Source: a virus
Lineage: Duplodnaviria; Heunggongvirae; Uroviricota; Caudoviricetes
Reading direction: 5' to 3' (one strand)
Virus record (IMG/VR): IMGVR_UViG_2541047687_000013
Span: 1-10,077 of that record
Length of the DNA: 10,077 nucleotides
The translations under genes and the position numbers were made by a program. This document shows, piece by piece, positions 1-8,254 of this stretch. Position 1 is the first letter of the stretch. Every line of letters starts with the position of its first letter. The notes under the pieces were generated by a model. It saw only the letters and a list, made by a program, of their open reading frames with translations. It ran no database searches and was not told the origin of the DNA.

Positions 1-15
1 AAACCAACGTTTATC
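1..15. other. Probable crossover half-site (hix/gix/cix/pix-like) for the adjacent serine invertase, truncated by the window edge
   Basis: Positions 1-15 read AAACC-AA-CGTTT-ATC, resembling the central AAACC-nn-GGTTT core of the 26-bp sites used by Hin/Gin/Cin/Pin invertases. It sits about 60 bp upstream of the invertase start, as in Mu gin, P1 cin and e14 pin. The left half lies outside the window, so it cannot be confirmed. Confidence 0.3.
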
Positions 16-73
16 TCTCAAATCCTCCCCACATTATCTCAGTACTTTAACCACTCAAAAGGGAGTATTTTTA

Positions 74-646
74 ATGCTGATTGGCTACATACGTGTGTCA
101 ACAAATGACCAAAACACAGATTTGCAACGCAATGCATTAATGTGCGCAGGATGTGAACAGATTTTTGAGGACAAAATGAGCGGAACCAAGTCGGAACGAC
201 CAGGCCTGAAACGCGCTTTAAAGTGCCTTAAAAGAGGGGATACATTGGTGGTCTGGAAGCTGGATCGGTTGGGTAGAAGAATGAAACACCTCATTGCTCT
301 CACAGAAGAGCTACGCGCAAAAGGTGTCAATTTTCGCAGTCTGACGGATTCAATCGATACCAGCACTCCGATGGGAAGGTTCTTTTTTCATATGATGGGT
401 GCACTGGCAGAAATGGAGCGTGAACTGATAGTTGAGCGCACGCTGGCAGGACTGGCTGCTGCGCGAGCACAAGGAAGAGTTGGAGGACGTCGCCCGAAAC
501 TGACGAAGGAGCAGCATGAGCAGATCGCAAGATTGCTCCAGAAAGGGTATGACAGAAAGCGGCTGGCAATTATCTATGATATTGGACTGTCAACGATCTA
601 CCGCTATCACCCTGTTGGGACTGTCATAACGCAACCTGAAATGTAA
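74..646 (+). CDS. pin: Serine recombinase, DNA invertase of the Pin/Gin/Hin/Cin family
   Basis: 190-aa ORF with the N-terminal resolvase/invertase catalytic motif GYIRVSTNDQ (active-site Ser), the conserved LVVWKLDRLGR and FRSLTDSIDT blocks, and a C-terminal helix-turn-helix (GRRPKLT). Closely resembles e14 PinE as recalled. GGGAG Shine-Dalgarno at 61-65. Confidence 0.9.
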   Translation: MLIGYIRVSTNDQNTDLQRNALMCAGCEQIFEDKMSGTKSERPGLKRALKCLKRGDTLVVWKLDRLGRRMKHLIALTEELRAKGVNFRSLTDSIDTSTPMGRFFFHMMGALAEMERELIVERTLAGLAAARAQGRVGGRRPKLTKEQHEQIARLLQKGYDRKRLAIIYDIGLSTIYRYHPVGTVITQPEM

Positions 647-699
647 TTCTTTTTCAAATAATGAAACGCCGCGTGGATGCCATTTATCGCACAAGATAG

Positions 700-2346
700 A
701 GTGCATTTATCGCGCGGCGCATCACCGAAGTCACCGCAGACAGCGGGGAATATCAGGTGCTGGCGCGCTGGGACACGCCGAAGGTGGTGAAGGGGGTGAG
801 CTTCCTGCTCCGTCTGACCGTAACAGCGGACGACGGCAGTGAGCGGCTGGTCAGCACGGCCCGGACGACGGAAACCACATACCGCTTCAGGCAACTGGCG
901 CTGGGGAACTACAGGCTGACAGTCCGGGCGGTAAATGCGTGGGGGCAGCAGGGCGATCCGGCGTCGGTATCGTTCCGGATTGCCGCACCGGCAGCACCGT
1001 CGAGGATTGAGCTGACGCCGGGCTATTTTCAGATAACCGCCACGCCGCATCTTGCCGTTTATGACCCGACGGTACAGTTTGAGTTCTGGTTCTCGGAAAA
1101 GCGGATTACCGATATCAGGAAGGTTGAAACCACAGCGCGCTATCTTGGTACGGCGCTGTACTGGATAGCCGCCAGTATCAATATCAAACCGGGCCATGAT
1201 TATTATTTTTACGTTCGCAGTGTGAACACCGTTGGCAAATCGGCATTCGTGGAGGCTGTCGGTCAGCCGAGTGATGATGCATCAGGCTATCTGGATTTTT
1301 TCAAAGGCGAGATAGGGAAAACCCATCTGGCTCAGGAGCTGTGGACGCAGATTGATAACGGTCAGCTTGCGCCTGACCTGACTGAAATCAGGACGTCCAT
1401 AACGGATGTCAGCAATGAAATAACACAGACCGTCAATAAGAAACTGGAAGACCAGAGTGCAGCGATCCAGCAGATACAGAAGGTTCAGGTTGATACAAAT
1501 AATAACCTGAACAGCATGTGGGCAGTGAAGCTGCAGCAGATGCAGGACGGACGCCTTTATATTGCGGGTATCGGTGCCGGTATTGAGAACACCCCTGACG
1601 GCATGCAGAGTCAGGTGCTGCTGGCAGCAGACAGGATTGCGATGATTAATCCTGCGAATGGCAACACAAAGCCGATGTTTGTTGGTCAGGGCGATCAGAT
1701 ATTCATGAATGAAGTGTTCCTGAAACGCCTGACGGCCCCCACCATTACCAGCGGCGGTAATCCTCCGGCATTTTCCCTGACATCAGACGGGAGACTGACG
1801 GCGAAAAATGCGGATATCAGTGGCAGTGTGAATGCGAACTCAGGAACGCTCAACAATGTCACGATTAACCAGAACTGTACGATTAAGGGCATGCTGGAGG
1901 CGACCCAGGTCAGAGGAGATTTCGTTAAAGCTGTATCAAAAGCCTTCCCGAAAAAAGTCGGTACGTGGGGTAACACGGAAACACCAAACGGTACGGTTAC
2001 AGTCACCATCAGCGATGATCATAACTTTGACCGCCAGATTATTATTCCGCCCATTATTTTTAACGGTATAGCGTATGACGATCCGGGGAGCGGAAATAAC
2101 CCAGGAGGCACGCGATACACGGGTTATGGTTTTGAAGTTCGCAAAAACGGCGTATTAATCGCATCCAGAGAAACTAAAGGGGCCATTCCCGGTAGTTACA
2201 GTGCAGTTATTGATATGCCGAGTGGCAGGGGAAGCGTCACTCTGGAGTTTAAGATTTTCCAGAAAGGCAATCAGGGGGCAGGCAATATCACCGACTGTAC
2301 GGTGATTGTGACCAAAAAAGCCGCTTCCGGCATCAGTATTCGTTGA
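700..2346 (+). pseudogene. J: 5'-truncated host specificity protein J (central tail fibre), C-terminal ~548 codons only
   Basis: The frame opens after an in-frame TAG at 697-699 and runs to TGA at 2344-2346. The translation ([56 protein letters not shown]...) matches the C-terminal half of lambda J as recalled. Only 53 bp separate it from the invertase stop, so the N-terminal ~590 codons are absent. No Shine-Dalgarno precedes the first in-frame GTG at 757. Confidence 0.8.
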
Positions 2347-2368
2347 AATATTTATAACCCCAATAAAG

Positions 2369-2394
2369 GGCGTCAGGAATGACGCCTTTTTTAT
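2369..2394 (+). terminator. Rho-independent terminator downstream of J remnant
   Basis: Perfect 7-bp stem GGCGTCA (2369-2375), loop GGAA, TGACGCC (2380-2386), followed by TTTTTTATT. Confidence 0.7.
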
Positions 2395-2416
2395 TGCAGA
2401 AAAGCGAGAGGTAATT

Positions 2417-3016
2417 ATGCGTAAAGTTTGTGCAGCAATTTTGTCCGCAGCCATTTGTCTGGCCGTATCCGGTGCGCCTGCATGGGCGTCTGAACATCAG
2501 TCCACGCTGAGCGCGGGGTATCTTCATGCCTCGACGAACGTCCCCGGCAGTGATGATCTGAACGGGATTAACGTGAAATACCGTTATGAGTTTACGGACA
2601 CACTGGGGCTGGTGACGTCATTCAGCTATGCAGGAGACAAGAATCGCCAGCTGACCCGTTACAGCGATACCCGCTGGCATGAAGATTCCGTTCGTAACCG
2701 CTGGTTCAGCGTAATGGCGGGGCCGTCTGTGCGCGTGAATGAATGGTTCAGCGCGTATGCGATGGCGGGTGTAGCTTACAGCCGTGTGTCGACTTTCTCC
2801 GGGGATTATCTTCGCGTAACTGACAACAAGGGGAAAAAGCACGATGTGCTGACCGGAAGTGATGACGGTCGCCACAGCAACACGTCTCTGGCGTGGGGGG
2901 CTGGCGTGCAGTTTAACCCGACCGAATCCGTGGCCATTGATATTGCTTATGAAGGCTCCGGCAGTGGTGACTGGCGCACTGACGGTTTCATCGTGGGTGT
3001 CGGTTATAAATTCTGA
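2417..3016 (+). CDS. lom: Lom outer membrane protein (Ail/Lom/PagC family eight-stranded beta-barrel)
   Basis: 199-aa ORF with an N-terminal signal peptide (MRKVCAAILSAAICLAVSGAPAWA). Blocks INVKYRYE, YAMAGVAYSR and the C-terminal DIAYEGSGSGDWRTDGFIVGVGYKF match lambda Lom as recalled. GAGAGG Shine-Dalgarno at 2405-2410. Position between J and stf is as in lambda. Confidence 0.9.
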   Translation: MRKVCAAILSAAICLAVSGAPAWASEHQSTLSAGYLHASTNVPGSDDLNGINVKYRYEFTDTLGLVTSFSYAGDKNRQLTRYSDTRWHEDSVRNRWFSVMAGPSVRVNEWFSAYAMAGVAYSRVSTFSGDYLRVTDNKGKKHDVLTGSDDGRHSNTSLAWGAGVQFNPTESVAIDIAYEGSGSGDWRTDGFIVGVGYKF

Positions 3017-3042
3017 TTAGCCAGGTAACACAGTGTTATGAC

Positions 3043-3070
3043 AGCCCGCCGGTTCAGGCGGGCTTTTTTG
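3043..3070 (+). terminator. Rho-independent terminator downstream of lom
   Basis: Stem AGCCCGCC (3043-3050), loop GGTTCA, GGCGGGCT (3057-3064), followed by a T6 run and GTGGGG. Confidence 0.75.
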
Positions 3071-3080
3071 TGGGGTGAAT

Positions 3081-6000
3081 ATGGCAGTAAAGATTTCAGG
3101 TGTACTGAAAGACGGCACAGGAAAACCGGTACAGAACTGCACAATCCAGCTGAAAGCAAAACGTAACAGCACCACGGTGGTGGTGAACACGCTGGCCTCA
3201 GAAAATCCGGATGAAGCCGGGCGTTACAGCATGGACGTTGAGTACGGGCAGTACAGCGTTATTCTGTTGGTGGAGGGATTCCCGCCGTCACATGCCGGGA
3301 CCATCACCGTGTATGAAGATTCCCGACCCGGTACGCTGAATGATTTTCTCGGTGCCATGACGGAGGATGATGCCCGTCCTGAGGCACTGCGCCGTTTTGA
3401 ACTGATGGTGGAAGAGGTGGCGCGTAACGCGTCCGCGGTGGCACAGAACACGGCAGCCGTGAAGAAGTCAGCCAGCGATGCCAGCACATCAGCCCGTGAG
3501 GCGGCAACCCATGCGACTGATGCTGCAGGCTCAGCACGCGCAGCCAGCACGTCAGCCGGACAGGCCGCGTCGTCGGCTCAGTCAGCATCTTCCAGCGCAG
3601 GAACGGCATCAACAAAGGCCAGTGAAGCATCGAAAAGTGCTGCTGCTGCAGAGTCCTCAAAAAGCGCGGCAGCTACCAGTGCCGCTGCGGCGAAAACGTC
3701 AGAAACGAATGCGGCAGCGTCACAACAATCAGCAGCCACTTCTGCATCCGCCGCGACCACGAAGGCGTCAGAAGCAGCCACCTCAGCCCGGGATGCGGCG
3801 GCCTCAAAAGAGGCAGCGAAATCATCAGAAACGAACGCATCATCAAGCGCCAGTAGTGCCGCTTCCTCGGCAACGGCGGCAGCAAATTCTGCGAAGGCGG
3901 CCAAAACGTCTGAGACAAACGCCAGGTCTTCTGAAACGGCAGCGGGACAGAGCGCCTCGGCTGCGGCAGGCTCAAAAACAGCGGCTGCGTCGTCTGCCAG
4001 TGCCGCGTCAACAAGTGCCGGGCAGGCCTCAGCCAGTGCCACCGCCGCCGGAAAATCGGCAGAAAGTGCCGCATCGTCTGCTTCAACAGCCACAACGAAG
4101 GCTGGCGAAGCCACTGAACAGGCCAGCGCAGCAGCGAGGTCTGCTTCCGCAGCGAAGACATCCGAGACGAACGCGAAAGCGTCGGAAACCAGCGCAGAAT
4201 CCTCAAAAACGGCTGCCGCATCGTCCGCCAGTTCGGCGGCGTCATCGGCATCATCGGCGTCTGCTTCAAAAGATGAGGCGACCAGACAAGCGTCCGCAGC
4301 GAAGGGCAGCGCCACGACAGCATCCACGAAGGCGACAGAGGCAGCTGGCAGTGCGACGGCGGCAGCACAGAGCAAAAGTACGGCGGAATCCGCGGCAACG
4401 CGCGCCGAGACAGCGGCAAAACGGGCAGAGGATATTGCATCCGCCGTGGCGCTTGAGGATGCAAGTACGACGAAAAAGGGGATAGTACAGCTCAGCAGTG
4501 CGACCAACAGTACGTCTGAAACGCTGGCGGCAACGCCAAAGGCAGTAAAATCAGCCTATGACAATGCAGAGAAACGTCTGCAGAAAGACCAGAACGGCGC
4601 TGATATACCCGATAAGGGACGCTTCCTGAACAACATTAACGCGGTCAGTAAAACAGACTTTGCTGATAAGCGTGGTATGCGTTATGTGCGGGTTAACGCT
4701 CCTGCAGGTGCAATATCTGGAAAATATTACCCTGTTGTTGTTATGCGTTCTGCTGGCTCAGTAAGCGAACTGGCATCAAGGGTCATTATCACCACGGCAA
4801 CGCGAACCGCAGGCGATCCGATGAATAACTGCGAGTTTAACGGATTTGTTATGCCTGGTGGCTGGACTGACAGGGGGCGTTATGCTTATGGAATGTTCTG
4901 GCAATATCAAAACAATGAACGAGCCATCCACTCAATAATGATGAGTAATAAGGGCGATGATTTGCGCTCTGTGTTCTATGTTGATGGCGCTGCTTTCCCT
5001 GTTTTTGCGTTTATCGAAGATGGCCTGTCAATATCCGCACCTGGTGCTGATCTCGTTGTTAATGATACGACCTATAAGTTTGGGGCAACAAATCCGGCGA
5101 CTGAATGTATCGCGGCGGACGTTATCCTTGATTTTAAGAGTGGGCGTGGTTTTTATGAGTCTCATTCGTTAATCGTTAACGATAACTTGTCGTGCAAAAA
5201 ACTTTTTGCCACAGACGAAATTGTAGCGCGTGGTGGTAATCAGATTCGAATGATAGGTGGGGAGTATGGGGCATTATGGCGTAATGATGGCGCTAAAACT
5301 TACCTGCTGCTTACCAATCAAGGTGATGTTTATGGTGGCTGGAATACATTAAGACCGTTTGCTATTGATAACGCAACCGGCGAACTGGTTATTGGAACCA
5401 AACTGTCCGCAAGTCTGAACGGTAATGCATTAACAGCAACAAAGCTGCAAACGCCAAGACGGGTTTCTGGTGTTGAGTTTGATGGTTCCAAAGATATTAC
5501 TTTAACCGCCGCGCATGTGGCTGCTTTTGCCAGAAGGGCAACGGATACATATGCCGATGCGGATGGTGGCGTTCCCTGGAATGCCGAATCAGGCGCTTAC
5601 AATGTCACCCGCTCTGGCGACAGCTATATTCTGGTTAACTTCTATACCGGAGTCGGAAGTTGCCGGACCCTGCAGATGAAGGCGCATTACAGAAATGGTG
5701 GTCTGTTCTACCGTTCTTCAAGAGATGGCTATGGTTTTGAGGAAGACTGGGCAGAAGTTTATACCTCGAAAAATCTTCCACCAGAAAGCTACCCAGTCGG
5801 CGCACCAATCCCGTGGCCATCAGATACCGTTCCGTCTGGTTATGCCCTGATGCAGGGGCAGACTTTTGACAAATCTGCCTACCCGAAACTTGCTGCCGCT
5901 TATCCGTCAGGCGTGATCCCTGATTTGCGTGGCTGGACGATTAAGGGCAAGCCCGCCAGTGGTCGTGCCGTATTGTCTCAGGAACAGGATGGCATTAAAT

Positions 6001-6479
6001 CGCATACCCACAGCGCCAGCGCATCCAGTACGGATTTGGGGACGAAAACCACATCGTCGTTTGATTACGGCACTAAATCCACGAATAACACTGGTGCGCA
6101 TACCCATAGTTTAAGTGGCAGCACGAATGCAGCTGGTAATCACAGCCATAGAGATGGCCGTCGATTTAACCCCAGTGTTTTTAAAGATACTTATCAATAT
6201 GGTTATACAAGCTCAGGTCAAAATACCTGGGGTGTACAAGGCTCAGTAGGTATGTCTACGGGGTGGTTAGCGAATACCAGTACAGATGGTAATCATAGCC
6301 ATTCACTGTCCGGCACAGCAGCATCTGCAGGTGCACACGCGCATACTGTCGGTATTGGTGCTCATACGCACTCCGTTGCGATTGGTTCACATGGACACAC
6401 CATCACCGTTAACGCTGCTGGTAACGCGGAAAACACCGTCAAAAACATCGCATTTAACTATATTGTGAGGCTTGCATAA
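3081..6479 (+). CDS. stf: Side tail fibre protein Stf, mosaic
   Basis: The N-terminus [80 protein letters not shown] and the C-terminus ...[31 protein letters not shown] match lambda/Rac Stf as recalled. The ORF track begins at GTG 3075, but ATG 3081 with a GGGGTG Shine-Dalgarno fits the lambda start. Long Ala/Ser-rich shaft and His-x-His-rich tip. Confidence 0.9.
3460..4490 (+). repeat. GC-rich imperfect tandem repeat region encoding the Ala/Ser/Thr-rich fibre shaft of Stf
   Basis: Recurring nucleotide units such as AAAACGTCAGAAACGAATGC, TCATCAGAAACGAACGCATC, AAAACGTCTGAGACAAACGCC and AAGACATCCGAGACGAACGCG, encoding repeated AAKTSETNA / SASAAS-type peptide units. The low complexity spawns long spurious ORFs in every other frame. 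Confidence 0.8.
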
Positions 6480-7063
6480 TGGCATTCAGAATGAGTGAAC
6501 AAGCACGGACCATAAAAATTTATAATCTGCTGGCCGGAACTAATGAATTTATTGGTGAAGGTGATGCATATATTCCGCCTCATACAGGTCTGCCAGCAAA
6601 CAGTACCGATATTGCACCACCAGATATTCCTGCTGGCTTCGTGGTTGTTTTCAACAGTGATGAGGCATCGTGGCATCTCGTTGAAGACCATCGGGGTAAA
6701 ACGGTTTATGACGTAGCGTCAGGGGACGAGTTATTTATTTCTGAACTCGGTCCGTTACCGGAAAATGTTACCTGGTTATCGCCGGAAGGGGAGTTTCAGA
6801 AGTGGAACGGCACAGCCTGGGTGAAAGATGCAGAAGCAGAAAAACTGTTCCGGATCCGAGAGGCGGAAGAAATAAAAAACAGCCTGATGCAGGTAGCCAG
6901 TGAGCATATTGCGCCACTTCAGGATGCTGTAGATCTGGAAATCGCAACGGAGGAAGAAACCTCATTGCTGGAAGCCTGGAAAAAGTATCGGGTGTTGCTG
7001 AACCGTGTTGATACATCAACTGCACCTGATATTGAGTGGCCTACGAACCCTGTCAGGGAGTAA
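6479..7063 (+). CDS. tfa: Tail fibre assembly protein Tfa
   Basis: 194-aa ORF; [54 protein letters not shown]... and the C-terminal ...[21 protein letters not shown] match lambda Tfa as recalled. The ATG overlaps the stf stop (TAATG at 6477-6481), suggesting translational coupling. Confidence 0.9.
6899..7018 (+). repeat. Direct repeat copy A (tfa 3' end), partner at 7948-8067
   Basis: Manual alignment with 7948-8067 shows about 13 mismatches over 120 bp, with the first ~60 bp nearly identical. Confidence 0.8.
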
Positions 7064-7078
7064 TCATTGGGATTATGC

Positions 7079-7110
7079 CGCAGCACGTCTTAAGCAAGAA
7101 CGTGCTGCGG
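7079..7110. terminator. Hairpin between convergent tfa and methyltransferase genes, possible bidirectional terminator
   Basis: Perfect 11-bp inverted repeat CCGCAGCACGT (7078-7088) / ACGTGCTGCGG (7100-7110) with an 11-nt loop. A T6 run at 7121-7126 lies on the plus strand, but 10 nt from the stem, so a terminator role is uncertain. Confidence 0.4.
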
Positions 7111-7117
7111 TTGGATG

Positions 7118-7786
7118 CTATTTTTTCCCTGAAGCGGAAAACATTACTACAGTACCTTGAACCTTGGTTTTAACATTCTCGAAATGCTCTGAGAGTATAT
7201 GTGTTAAGCCTTCTTCGGAATCTTTTGTGTTTGAAAAGATGCCTTTCTGATTGTAAATGCGCATCAGTTTTTGACCGAAGCTATTGTGCACAACTCCATC
7301 GCCAAGAATTGTGGCTCCGTATAGAGTTCCATCGTCAGTTAAGGCCTGCGCCGCATTGCGTATTACACAGCTTTTTGTAGATATATTTCCAGGCAGGCAG
7401 TGAAGAAGGTAAAACATGGAAATGGAATCAAATTGACCATGTAACGCCGCGGGATAAGGTTCAAAAACATCATGGCTAATTTTATGTTTAATTTTTGATT
7501 CCCCAGCCCTTGTAGATGCCGCGTTCAGGCTAGCTTCGTTCAAATCCATTAAAGATATCAGACTACTCTCAGGTACGTGAGTAAGGTAAAACCCAGTTCC
7601 AACACCAATATCCAGATGGTTGTTACCTAAATGTTCCAGAAAGTGTGGAAGAAGGTGTTCCTTTGTAGGACATCCCCATGCAAGCCGATTTGATACTCCC
7701 AAAACCCACCAGTCATAAAGCTTTAGGGTAAGTGGTGTGTAAATTTTAGCCCCATCATCTGTGTTTTTTTTCATTAATTTCACCAT
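7118..7786 (-). CDS. ybcY: Class I SAM-dependent methyltransferase (Rossmann fold), substrate unknown; ybcY-like by position
   Basis: 222-aa ORF with motif I HLDIGVGTGFY (hh-D/E-h-G-x-G-x-G), an acidic post-I residue (LMDLN) and an FDSISMFYLLHCLP block typical of small-molecule/protein methyltransferases. No DPPY/NPPY or PC motifs, so probably not a DNA methyltransferase. The second ATG (7772-7774) has a GGTGA Shine-Dalgarno and may be the true start. Gene symbol is from recalled synteny with K-12 DLP12 (tfaD-ybcY-tfaX), not from sequence identity. Confidence 0.75.
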   Translation of the reverse strand: MVKLMKKNTDDGAKIYTPLTLKLYDWWVLGVSNRLAWGCPTKEHLLPHFLEHLGNNHLDIGVGTGFYLTHVPESSLISLMDLNEASLNAASTRAGESKIKHKISHDVFEPYPAALHGQFDSISMFYLLHCLPGNISTKSCVIRNAAQALTDDGTLYGATILGDGVVHNSFGQKLMRIYNQKGIFSNTKDSEEGLTHILSEHFENVKTKVQGTVVMFSASGKK

Positions 7787-7815
7787 GTTATAGTTTTATT
7801 TGTGAATTAAATCAA
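7787..7815 (-). promoter_or_regulatory. Candidate sigma70 promoter for the methyltransferase gene
   Basis: On the minus strand, TTGATT (complement of 7810-7815), a 17-nt spacer, then TATAAC (complement of 7787-7792), immediately upstream of the ORF. Consensus-like spacing; not verified. Confidence 0.3.
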
Positions 7816-7842
7816 TTATGGCGATGAATTACAAGGGGTTAA

Positions 7843-8148
7843 ATGCTGCCGCAGCATAGCGATATTGAAATAGCCTGGTATGCTTCGATACAACAGGAGC
7901 CGAATGGCTGGAAGACCGTCACCACACAGTTCTACATCCAGGAATTCAGTGAGTATATTGCGCCACTGCAGGATGCTGTAGATCTGGAAATCGCAACGGA
8001 GGAAGAAAGATCGTTGCTGGAGGCATGGAATAAATATCGGGTATTGTTGAATCGAGTTGATACATCAGTAGCTCTGGGTATGAAGCTGTTTGTAACTCAT
8101 GTTACAGTAACAGTCATTACTATCTCGAAGGTGCAAAATGTATATTGA
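7843..8148 (+). pseudogene. tfaX: Tail fibre assembly protein remnant (tfaX-like), reading through into unrelated sequence
   Basis: The ORF contains [38 protein letters not shown], almost identical to the Tfa C-terminus at 6899-7018. The Tfa-like N-terminal body is absent and the native C-terminal tail is replaced by read-through. Nucleotide repeat copy B is 7948-8067. Confidence 0.7.
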
Positions 8149-8254
8149 TTTGATATTTTATAAATTTACTTCGAATCTGGCACGTCAACTTTTGATTAAA
8201 GTAATATCAGTTTTCGGCGAAAAAAGGACCGTGTACATGAGACGATTTCATACA

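Follow-up and report, generated by a model that had tools for sequence, protein, structure and literature searches.

A probable intact counterpart of the Escherichia coli K-12 tfaD-ybcY-tfaX locus, with a tfa relic behind methyltransferase cargo

The 3' end of the tail fibre assembly gene tfa occurs twice, in the same orientation, within a 10,077-nt stretch of caudoviral DNA (positions 1 to 10,077 of IMG/VR record IMGVR_UViG_2541047687_000013, hereafter the window), with an oppositely oriented methyltransferase gene between the two copies. This arrangement raises the question of where the second copy came from, and of whether the conserved tfa 3' end has served to acquire, exchange or remove the gene that it brackets. 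The reading that we favour, to which as a whole a probability of roughly 0.8 is given, is that the window represents the intact counterpart of K-12 tfaD-ybcY-tfaX, and that the tfa relic behind the methyltransferase cargo is a scar of lambdoid module-swapping. The features concerned are collected in Table 1.

Table 1 Features of the window that bear on the origin of the duplicated tfa 3' end.
Feature	Coordinates	Strand	Remarks
tfa, tail fibre assembly	6479-7063	+	194 aa, last gene of the late operon; Caudo_TAP E=1.6e-44
Repeat copy 1	6887-7018	+	Encodes the conserved C-terminal helical domain of Tfa
Palindromic hairpin	7078-7112		Between the converging tfa and methyltransferase genes; identified from folding energy
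Class I SAM-dependent methyltransferase, K-12 ybcY orthologue	7118-7786	-	Cargo (moron); Pfam, PHROG and PGAP matches
Promoter-like site TTGATT-17-TATAAC	7787-7815	-	Immediately upstream of the methyltransferase gene
101-codon chimeric ORF	7843-8148	+	Not a real tfa gene; dinI antisense, tfa relic and unrelated tail
dinI-family relic, first codons and upstream sequence of the gene's 5' end	7862-7929	-	68 nt; nucleotide and tblastn matches
Repeat copy 2, tfa pseudogene fragment (tfaX type)	7936-8067	+	5'-truncated everywhere; in this lineage also 3'-cut at 8067
AT-rich spacer, 32.6% G+C	8068-8331		Starts at the junction that cuts the relic; contains a hairpin (8276-8311) downstream of the hydrolase gene
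TAP-like alpha/beta hydrolase (context)	8332-9816	-	Further b-region cargo; ompT follows in related phages

A repeat finder applied to the whole window reported one family only, a direct repeat of 132 nt (6887-7018 and 7936-8067) with 115/132 matching positions (87%), of which the longest exact run is 40 nt (6920-6959 and 7969-8008). A 40-nt exact match inside 10 kb would exclude chance, and tfa 3' ends align to the repeat with BLAST E values of ~1e-37 to 1e-40. An earlier note on this DNA had described a 120-bp segment at 6899-7018 that recurs in the same orientation at 7948-8067, and the comparison bore this out, with 13 mismatches in 120 positions, two of them in the first 60; both copies are thus present, although their true start lies 12 nt further 5' (6887 and 7936). 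The methyltransferase gene between them is indeed on the opposite strand, and its G+C content of 40.8% (tfa, 47.4%; stf, 53.2%) is the base composition expected of a moron. It does not, however, lie "exactly" between the copies as had been stated, since the final 45 nt of tfa, the hairpin at 7078-7112, the promoter-like site (7815-7787) and the 68-nt dinI-family relic (7862-7929) are in the interval as well.

The locus is already known, this stretch being annotated in E. coli K-12, and it is a case of ordinary lambdoid mosaicism. Positions 6625-8072 of the window are 97.7% identical to K-12 tfaD'-ybcY'-tfaX' upstream of appY-ompT and contain the same dinI'/tfa' junction, which establishes the two as orthologous, while positions 6000-10077 are 97.7% identical to an intact prophage upstream of ompT in O145 RM9872. 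Genomes that are 97.7-99.9% identical over 6000-10077 or 7078-10077 place the locus upstream of ompT-envY-ybcH-nfrA; the argU side is visible in one locus (L005) and the intD side in another (L145), in agreement with an argU-ompT neighbourhood. The DLP12 prophage of K-12 thus resembles the window in chromosomal locus, gene order and orientation. It differs in that tfaD is a pseudogene and ybcY is frameshifted, whereas the window has an intact tfa, an intact methyltransferase gene and a full J'-lom-stf module; moreover, the K-12 relic is a mosaic with another right-hand tail that ends in a TGA stop and is followed by appY, whereas the relic of the window is cut at 8067 and followed by the hydrolase gene.

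Of 5426 complete E. coli genomes, 3791 contain at least 80% of the segment from 7064 to 8067, and the block is flanked variously by ompT, ompW/yciE, potB or a bioA-ybhB-type neighbourhood. It also occurs in the isolated phages PhiR26_1, PhiR30_1, PhiR29 and ev243; searches of the literature on the PhiR and ev243 phages, and on the moron or b region, returned nothing useful. In every locus examined the methyltransferase gene is joined to the dinI relic, and to copy 2 as well unless a later deletion has removed that copy. Variable inserts (a katN-yciEFG-like block, or pin-ynaE-ynaM) are placed between the tfa stop and the hairpin. Capture of the O157 katN-yciEFG-like cargo from the chromosome beside the ompW att site was considered and rejected, the two being only 74% identical. 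In the O157-type genome PNUSAE008406, an IS66 element is inserted at 8066-8074 with an overlap of ~9 nt.

At the left of the block, tfa overlaps the end of stf, beginning at the stf stop (6479), and its product is a lambda-type Tfa, with a Caudo_TAP (PF02413) match over residues 72-191. The gene shares 92.7% identity with lambda tfa; homology to lambda continues as far as 7112, the end of the hairpin, and no further. This hairpin has predicted folding energies of -28.6 kcal/mol on the plus strand and -25.4 kcal/mol on the minus strand (z-scores -4.0 and -3.6) and is a probable two-way terminator, which delimits the variable b region on its left; it was not called by a simple terminator scan, because a T-run of the required form is absent. 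The same hairpin is found downstream of copy 2 in ompW-site prophages, and downstream of pin-ynaE-ynaM in PhiR42_1.

The methyltransferase gene probably has its true start at the ATG at 7774, and PHROG 2132, a family whose function is listed as unknown, aligns to its product from residue 5. In related genomes the corresponding gene is annotated by PGAP as a class I SAM-dependent methyltransferase; the K-12 version is frameshifted. The Pfam matches are generic (Methyltransf_12, _23, _25, _11, _31 and MTS), NCBIfam gave no name for this protein nor for Tfa, the nearest solved relatives are UbiG and juvenile-hormone acid methyltransferases (E ~1e-3), and PADLOC returned a marginal mad2 match only (E=0.0033). 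Homologues in Enterobacter (61-64% identity) are chromosomal and adjoin an M3 peptidase gene. A DNA methyltransferase or restriction-modification component was rejected, no family or motif of DNA methyltransferases having been matched; the enzyme, which would be expressed from the prophage, probably methylates small molecules or another substrate that is not DNA. Its predicted expression draws on the list of holoenzyme binding in vitro for K-12 and on sequence patterns: the hexamers of the promoter-like site are those of a constitutive RpoD holoenzyme site, accompanied by H-NS binding, in the K-12 ybcY/tfaX spacer (PMC3946193).

Whether the tfa 3' end has acted in recombination at this locus can be judged from the relic alleles. 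The relics of K-12, L022 and L014 differ from that of the window by 10.6-11.4%, whereas the adjacent 669-nt methyltransferase gene differs by 0-0.7%. In the K-12 relic the differences are mostly 3 nt apart, i.e. mostly at third codon positions, a pattern that points to a functional donor allele, and the mosaic tfaX has the same right-hand tail as the 3' ends of the single intact tfa genes that directly precede appY. The mosaic relic alleles show that the relic has crossed over with intact tfa genes from other phages. The suggestion that the tfa 3' end served as a homology arm for acquiring or swapping cargo is upheld as regards the arm; as regards the cargo it is not supported, the methyltransferase gene not being variable but linked to the dinI relic in every locus examined.

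Excision of the methyltransferase gene by recombination between the copies, as had been proposed, was likewise observed, though at the K-12-type locus. There, the single tfa of EM18-18-42 and of WGI31CT is of copy-1 type as far as 6919; from 6920 on it matches K-12 tfaX exactly, with the relic-specific bases and the TGA stop, so that the crossover lies inside the 40-nt identity block. Repeat-mediated deletion has thus occurred at this locus in at least two genomes (probably three). Six genomes at the same (appY) locus have a single intact tfa and no cassette, and such single-tfa alleles before appY (H283 and H285-H289) could be further deletion products instead of empty sites. For the configuration of the window no product was found: 0 of 5426 genomes cover at least 80% of a tfa fused to position 8068 onwards, a deletion that would yield a Tfa with a foreign C-terminal tail.

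These observations bear on two alternative views of what the repeat does. According to the first, the unit consisting of tfa 3' relic, hairpin, methyltransferase gene, dinI relic and tfa 3' relic would be a homology-flanked mobile moron carried by recombinases, with Red-type enzymes able to insert it behind any tfa and also to remove it. We consider such a mobile unit an unlikely, tentative proposal. If it were true, the success of the block (~70% of complete E. coli genomes, several att sites) would be due to flanks that every lambda-type phage must conserve. According to the second, the repeat would be a passive scar, the block having been placed by illegitimate joins and deletions, without a role for tfa 3' homology in acquiring or moving cargo. 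Several junctions are indeed situated outside the patch or arbitrarily within it (7935/7936, 8067/8068, 7042/7072, 7078, and relic starts at 6918, 6944 and 6966), and deletion products of relics of the window or ompW type were not found. Against this stand the jump of the relic alleles from ~0-1% to >10% divergence inside the patch beside an identical methyltransferase gene, the tail that K-12 tfaX shares with intact tfa genes, and the crossover of EM18-18-42 and WGI31CT, which together make a passive role improbable.

A third view concerns the ORF that contains copy 2, which might be a real gene for a Tfa reduced to its C-terminal domain, acting as a modulator of fibre assembly or as an exclusion factor and persisting for that reason. 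The ORF is open in the window, is called in phage records and forms a PHROG family (phrog_2341), its length ranging from 88 to 101 aa, and the K-12 spacer has a listed holoenzyme binding site on its tfaX side (PMC3946193). Its first 31 codons, however, run antisense to the dinI relic; codons 32-75 correspond to the tfa relic and the remainder is unrelated. The dinI relic shares 94% identity with the 5' end of a DinI-family gene annotated in Salmonella, with tblastn matches to residues 1-28 at 82-89% identity for eight loci, and in several E. coli genomes PGAP calls a DinI-family pseudogene here, whereas it begins the tfa pseudogene at the equivalent of 7936. As the fixed 5' breakpoint of copy 2 abuts the dinI relic, the 101-codon ORF is a chimera. 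Furthermore, the Caudo_TAP (PF02413) match of the 101-aa product covers profile positions 75-121 of 131 only, short of a full-length Tfa, and neither the native Tfa C-terminal tail nor its stop is present, homology ceasing at 8067 while the ORF runs into unrelated sequence. The C-terminus varies with the locus (native, potB-type, or unrelated as here), and K-12 and the deletion products have a stop codon. Tfa proteins combine a variable N-terminal fibre-binding domain with a conserved C-terminal domain (PMC9608196), and the former is lacking here. A real gene is therefore very improbable; the persistence of the relic is explained by its linkage to the methyltransferase gene and the hairpin, and the relic has no function of its own.

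The origin of copy 2 can be deduced from its distance to other tfa genes. It is 84-89% identical to every full-length tfa sampled, whereas those alleles are mutually 92-99% identical in the copy-1 segment. Over the 44 codons shared with the neighbouring tfa, dN/dS is 0.19 and dS 0.41, and the differing codons, four junction codons excluded, comprise nine synonymous and three nonsynonymous changes. The differences being mostly synonymous, the source of copy 2 was a different, once-functional tfa. Of the origins that the earlier note had offered, the joining of two tail-fibre modules with decay of one is therefore the best account. Descent of copy 2 from the adjacent tfa is not supported by the yardstick of that note itself, since the identity does not exceed that between unrelated tfa genes and is even lower. 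Birth of copy 2 as a target duplication upon insertion of the methyltransferase gene, or by recent tandem duplication and divergence, would suit direct copies on both sides of an insert but is hardly credible, given copies merely 87% identical next to a methyltransferase gene conserved at 99-100% across loci, the equal distance of copy 2 from all tfa alleles, the intervening dinI relic, and the lack of a transposase (in the ORF list and the Pfam scan of the window) or of terminal inverted repeats around the cassette (in the repeat search). On the same features, a transposon or IS element with target-site duplication was rejected for this 132-nt, 87% repeat.

The description of copy 2 as a tfa remnant holds in that it has no N-terminal body, and in the window no native stop; the loss of the stop, on the other hand, is specific to this lineage, since the native 3' end is kept in 66 of 101 scorable viral contigs and in ompW-site prophages. 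At the ompW site and in E. albertii the relics continue through the native stop and the hairpin, and in general the end of the chimeric ORF varies with the locus, the K-12 version containing an internal stop. All 102 IMG/VR viral contigs and every aligned genome locus have the same 5' junction with the dinI relic, and none of them has a tfa body upstream of copy 2; in each of these 102 contigs the copy-2 sequence is a relic. Bases diagnostic of copy 2 include, in copy-1 numbering, T6905, G6919, GA6960-61 and G6964. No full-length tfa with a copy-2 3' end of the window or ompW type was recovered (the best full-coverage match, at 95.9%, is an ordinary tfa), nor any phage tfa more than ~90% identical to copy 2, and a methyltransferase gene beside a full-length dinI was absent from a spread sample of 4305 matching genomes and from the scan of genome contigs. 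Because neither this combination nor a full-length copy-2-type tfa was found, the founding event is one that we infer rather than observe.

The favoured reading, a relic left by module-swapping, can thus be set out as follows. The window contains the right-hand part of a late operon, that of a lambda-like prophage at the argU/DLP12-ompT locus, and after it the first part of the cargo (b) region, in the order stf, tfa, hairpin, leftward methyltransferase moron with its own promoter-like site, 68-nt dinI relic and 3' end of a dead second tfa. The two copies would be the C-terminal-domain segments of two different tfa alleles, and copy 2 the remainder of an earlier tail-fibre module. That module would have been displaced by a block of stf, tfa, hairpin, methyltransferase gene and dinI, which was joined to it, probably in a single illegitimate event, and then inherited as one unit across a large share of E. 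coli lambdoid prophages. Since the conserved patch is common to every lambda-type tfa, the relic would stay competent for recombination, and crossovers with the intact tfa of other phages have, as the mosaic relic alleles show, brought the methyltransferase block before other cargo, on the appY side, on the hydrolase-ompT side and at several att-site flanks. Such exchange is mechanistically plausible: in experiments, Red-type recombinases of phages act on the stf-tfa region between lambda and the Rac and Qin prophages, and a divergence of 12% lowers the rate only ~100-fold (PMC3945230). A crossover between both copies within one genome would delete the methyltransferase gene, as is seen for the K-12-type locus, and in the lineage of the window the relic would later also have been cut at 8067 and joined to the hydrolase-ompT block.

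Relics elsewhere agree with this reading: in 36 viral contigs and in ev243, 2G7b, PhiR49, Ayreon and mEp460, a 3'-only tfa relic that starts at 6918, 6944 or 6966 lies behind another fibre module. Some features sit less easily with crossing-over. The left starts of these relics, like the 3' cut at 8067, look like illegitimate rather than homologous joints. In L022 and L014, almost the entire relic is of another allele while the 5' junction is unchanged; this needs a crossover or conversion tract that ends at most ~18 nt from the limit of homology, which simple crossing-over does not readily explain.

Phages exchange tail-fibre genes horizontally (Haggard-Ljungquist 1992; Sandmeier 1992/1994, as cited in PMC3945230). 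Lambdoid mosaicism arises at conserved patches by homologous or "relaxed" recombination (De Paepe et al. 2014, PMC3945230), where, as here, a conserved segment at the edge of a host-range module marks the boundaries of exchange between phages; unlike in that case, the segment occurs twice in the window and in direct orientation, so that intramolecular deletion is possible, and one copy is a non-coding relic. The methyltransferase gene further resembles lambda ea47 and the pin-ynaE morons of Rac and Qin, as a converging, AT-richer gene that directly follows the late-operon terminator and has a promoter-like site and a putative hairpin terminator. Relatives have ea47, pin-ynaE-ynaM, Panacea-dinI or a katN-yciEFG-like block as alternative cargo at the same point, and the effector loci of O157 lambdoid prophages are b-region cargo downstream of tail-fibre genes. 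The methyltransferase cargo is unusually widespread, occurring in ~70% of complete E. coli genomes, and the same two relics always come after it. The Pin/Gin/Cin invertible segments (Mu G, P1 C, e14) share with the window the presence of two tfa-related sequences, and a pin-type invertase gene lies at 74-646; those systems, however, consist of inverted repeats with complete alternative fibre/tfa genes that face opposite ways next to the controlling invertase gene, whereas the window has a direct repeat of which one copy is a fragment. An invertible tail-fibre segment was rejected, as the repeat is direct, no inverted partner of at least 20 nt was found near it, and ~6 kb separate it from the pin gene, which adjoins a truncated J.

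Beyond the tidying of annotation, these findings are of little significance. The "tail fiber assembly protein" that phage and genome records place downstream of ybcY-type genes is a chimeric pseudogene, K-12 tfaX is a recombinant relic, and the ybcY methyltransferase is among the most widespread lambdoid prophage cargo in E. coli; the function of this common, intact enzyme is the sole aspect that might repay experiments. The locus does offer a natural series (a possible empty site, the occupied site and repeat-mediated deletion) in which a conserved chaperone-domain sequence at the edge of a host-range module guides mosaicism.

A repeat finder applied to the window returned a single family of long direct repeats, consisting of 6887-7018 (copy 1, located within the 3' end of the tail fibre assembly gene tfa) and 7936-8067 (copy 2), which match at 115 of 132 nt and share a longest exact block of 40 nt at 6920-6959. 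The direct repeat of the tfa 3' end described in the earlier note is real, with 13 mismatches over the 120 nt of that note's own coordinates (6899-7018 and 7948-8067), two of which fall in the first 60. The methyltransferase gene (G+C content of 40.8% against 47.4% for tfa) is located between the copies as stated there, but the interval also contains other elements. At the left end of the window, the pin-type invertase gene immediately adjoins the 5'-truncated J (homology to full-length J begins near 725; window 1-760), a junction present in 0 of 5426 complete E. coli genomes. Elsewhere the pin block (1-736/748) adjoins irp2, rstB or tail gene L, suggesting that the DNA beside the invertase gene has been rearranged more than once.

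Genes and open reading frames of the window
Feature	Coordinates	Strand
pin-type serine invertase gene	74-646	
J, 5'-truncated	757-2346	
lom	2417-3016	
stf	3075-6479	
tfa	6479-7063	
class I SAM-dependent methyltransferase gene	7118-7786	minus
101-codon ORF, partial Tfa match	7843-8148	
TAP-like alpha/beta hydrolase gene	8332-9816	minus

The stretch 6625-8072 is 97.7% identical to the DLP12 prophage of E. coli K-12, in which the PGAP annotation has a pseudogene of tfa, then a class I methyltransferase gene with a frameshift and a second tfa pseudogene, followed by appY-ompT. In K-12 nomenclature these three are tfaD, ybcY and tfaX; the window contains, in intact form, an arrangement that the K-12 annotation already includes. 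The names ybcY and tfaX are used in PMC3946193. In O145 RM9872 the matching stretch ends an intact lambda-like tail gene set, and the hydrolase gene and ompT come next. The block 7064-8067 is present (at least 80%) in 3791 of 5426 complete E. coli genomes, with varying chromosomal flanks (ompT, ompW'-yciE, potB or a bioA-ybhB-type site), and is also carried by the isolated phages PhiR26_1, PhiR30_1, PhiR29 and ev243, the last of which has the methyltransferase gene, the copy-2 relic, the hydrolase gene and ompT between its tail-fibre genes and its integrase gene. Therefore, the block is cargo of the b region, past the lambda late operon, in a widespread lambdoid phage group. The order of hydrolase gene and then ompT between tfa relic and integrase gene is found inside both ev243 and PhiR26_1 (loci L007 and L008), and the hydrolase matches PADLOC candidate defence model C3a206 (E=3e-55). 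Contigs labelled as Bacillus, Planococcaceae or Segatella MAGs (L023, L029, L035), and likewise the 'B. thuringiensis plasmid' record HM037272, contain E. coli prophage sequence (97-100% identical) and almost certainly represent contamination or misbinning.

Homology to lambda covers tfa and ends at 7112, which is the end of a strong palindromic hairpin (7078-7112; folding energy -28.6 kcal/mol on one strand and -25.4 on the other, both with z-scores near -4), and the methyltransferase stop codon is located 6 nt past it. A 45-aa ORF (~7036-7173, plus strand), called by PGAP in related genomes as 'hypothetical protein' or 'nucleocapsid protein', spans the tfa stop, the hairpin and the methyltransferase 3' end, and is probably spurious. 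Immediately upstream of the methyltransferase gene, the minus strand contains the promoter-like TTGATT-17-TATAAC (7815-7787). For the spacer between ybcY and tfaX in K-12, these hexamers are reported to form a constitutive site of the RpoD holoenzyme that H-NS also binds (PMC3946193). Since the -10 element touches the annotated ATG, and residue 5 is where the PHROG profile begins, translation probably starts from the ATG at 7774. Further on, 7862-7929 shares 94% identity with the 5' end of a Salmonella DinI-family gene; this dinI relic was recovered by tblastn at eight loci, and several genomes have a DinI pseudogene at this position in their PGAP annotation. Given this likeness, codons 1-31 of the 101-codon ORF are antisense to the dinI relic; the tfa-derived part comprises codons 32-75 only (Caudo_TAP profile positions 75-121), and the PGAP tfa pseudogene begins at the equivalent of 7936. 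In other prophages (L040 2899-3450; L010 3793-4512) a full-length dinI-family gene is divergent from a decayed umuD-like S24 peptidase gene, and a Panacea-domain gene pair between dinI and tfa takes the position of the methyltransferase gene in the window.

Compared over 132 nt with the full-length tfa genes sampled, among them those of lambda, the Rac and Qin types and O157 as well as the adjacent gene, copy 2 has an identity of 84-89% to each, whereas full-length alleles are 92-99% identical among themselves, and the phage collection contained no tfa more than ~90% identical to copy 2. Across the 44 codons shared by copies 1 and 2, dN/dS is 0.19 and dS 0.41, and the differing codons outside the four junction codons comprise nine synonymous and three non-synonymous ones. 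Derivation of copy 2 by duplication of the adjacent tfa is ruled out by these values, and a reading of it as a copy of that gene does not hold. The low identity to all tfa genes, together with the mostly synonymous differences, argues that copy 2 diverged as a still-working tfa of another lineage, an origin that fits the earlier suggestion of two joined modules of which one decayed. On its 5' side, copy 2 breaks off against the dinI relic at one and the same point in every aligned genome and in each of the 102 IMG/VR contigs with copy-2 sequence, and none of these has a tfa body upstream of it. The 3' extent varies: among 101 scorable viral contigs, 66 have the native tail, 15 a potB-type tail and 20 the 8067 junction of the window, while ompW-site prophages and E. 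albertii retain the native stop and a second hairpin copy 3' of the relic. Therefore, the absence of the native stop in the window is a later, lineage-specific truncation. In O157-type PNUSAE008406 an IS66-family element (L006 5004-7444) is located exactly at the relic/spacer junction (8066-8074), and its flanking sequences overlap by about 9 nt as a target duplication.

Three lines of evidence indicate that the repeat is recombinationally active. The 669-nt methyltransferase gene of loci L022, L014 and K-12 differs from that of the window at 0-5 positions, and the 132-nt relic at 14-15; these relic alleles are mosaic. All K-12 relic differences are located right of 8021, most of them at a 3-nt spacing, which places them mostly at third codon positions and points to a functional allele as donor. 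At the appY-type locus, O169:H41, SFE8 and four more genomes contain a single intact tfa directly before appY, without the methyltransferase gene. The 3' tail of this single tfa is the same as the right part of K-12 tfaX, and such genomes are candidate empty sites. In EM18-18-42 and WGI31CT the single tfa is of copy-1 type as far as 6919; from 6920 on it shows no difference from K-12 tfaX, having the relic-specific GA (6960-61), G (6964) and TGA stop, and it is flagged by PGAP for an internal stop. This gene is the predicted product of repeat-mediated deletion, with the crossover within the 40-nt identity block; a third genome probably contains the same recombinant. Excision through the repeats, as anticipated in the earlier note, thus occurs at the K-12-type locus, but the deletion product of the window's configuration was found in 0 of 5426 genomes, and none was found for the ompW-type relic. 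Deletion in the window configuration would yield a Tfa with its last 15 residues swapped for unrelated sequence. The role of homology arm proposed for the tfa 3' end is likewise borne out at the K-12-type locus by the mosaic tfaX, but the methyltransferase gene is not swappable cargo, being joined to the dinI relic at all loci examined. Exchanges of this kind between tfa sequences are expected on mechanistic grounds: the stf-tfa region is one where lambda recombines with both Rac and Qin, chiefly via Red, and 12% divergence reduces the rate only ~100-fold (PMC3945230).

The methyltransferase gene adjoins the dinI relic in every locus examined, and is also linked to copy 2 except in Nissle-type genomes. 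In these and related genomes (L005 4001-5181) a deletion from 7872 to just before ompT has removed copy 2; all that is left in such genomes is int', the methyltransferase gene and a fragment of tfa that has lost ~100 nt internally (6842 to 6947). Variable inserts are placed between the tfa stop and the hairpin, being a katN-yciEFG-like block in the O157 type and pin-ynaE-ynaM in locus L021. The O157-type block contains four genes (Mn-catalase and yciE-, yciF- and yciG-like genes; L006 1337-3550, L016 6167-8380), and its local capture is ruled out by an identity of only 74% to E. coli chromosomal yciEFG. Other lambdoid b regions have the same start point, but contain ea47, pin or Panacea-dinI there. 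On the left, a different fibre module with only a 3' tfa relic behind it, which begins at 6918, 6944 or 6966, occurs in 36 viral contigs and in phages ev243, 2G7b, PhiR49, Ayreon and mEp460. Remnants of the tfa 3' end and hairpin are thus a general feature of the border between host-range module and cargo, likely because conservation among Tfa proteins lies in their C-terminal helical domain (PMC9608196).

The methyltransferase itself matches generic class I families only, plus a PHROG without assigned function, with no NCBIfam family and no DNA methyltransferase family among its matches. Its closest solved relatives are UbiG and juvenile-hormone acid methyltransferases (E about 1e-3), and its Enterobacter homologues (61-64% identical) are chromosomal and located beside an M3 peptidase gene. 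Its substrate is probably a small molecule or another non-DNA compound.

The arrangement in the window is textbook lambdoid mosaicism, and hence of low interest. Most probably, a displaced tfa was worn down to its conserved 3' end, and a sliver of dinI and this tfa end are stacked as recombination scars behind a very successful cargo gene. The conserved tfa patch still recombines.
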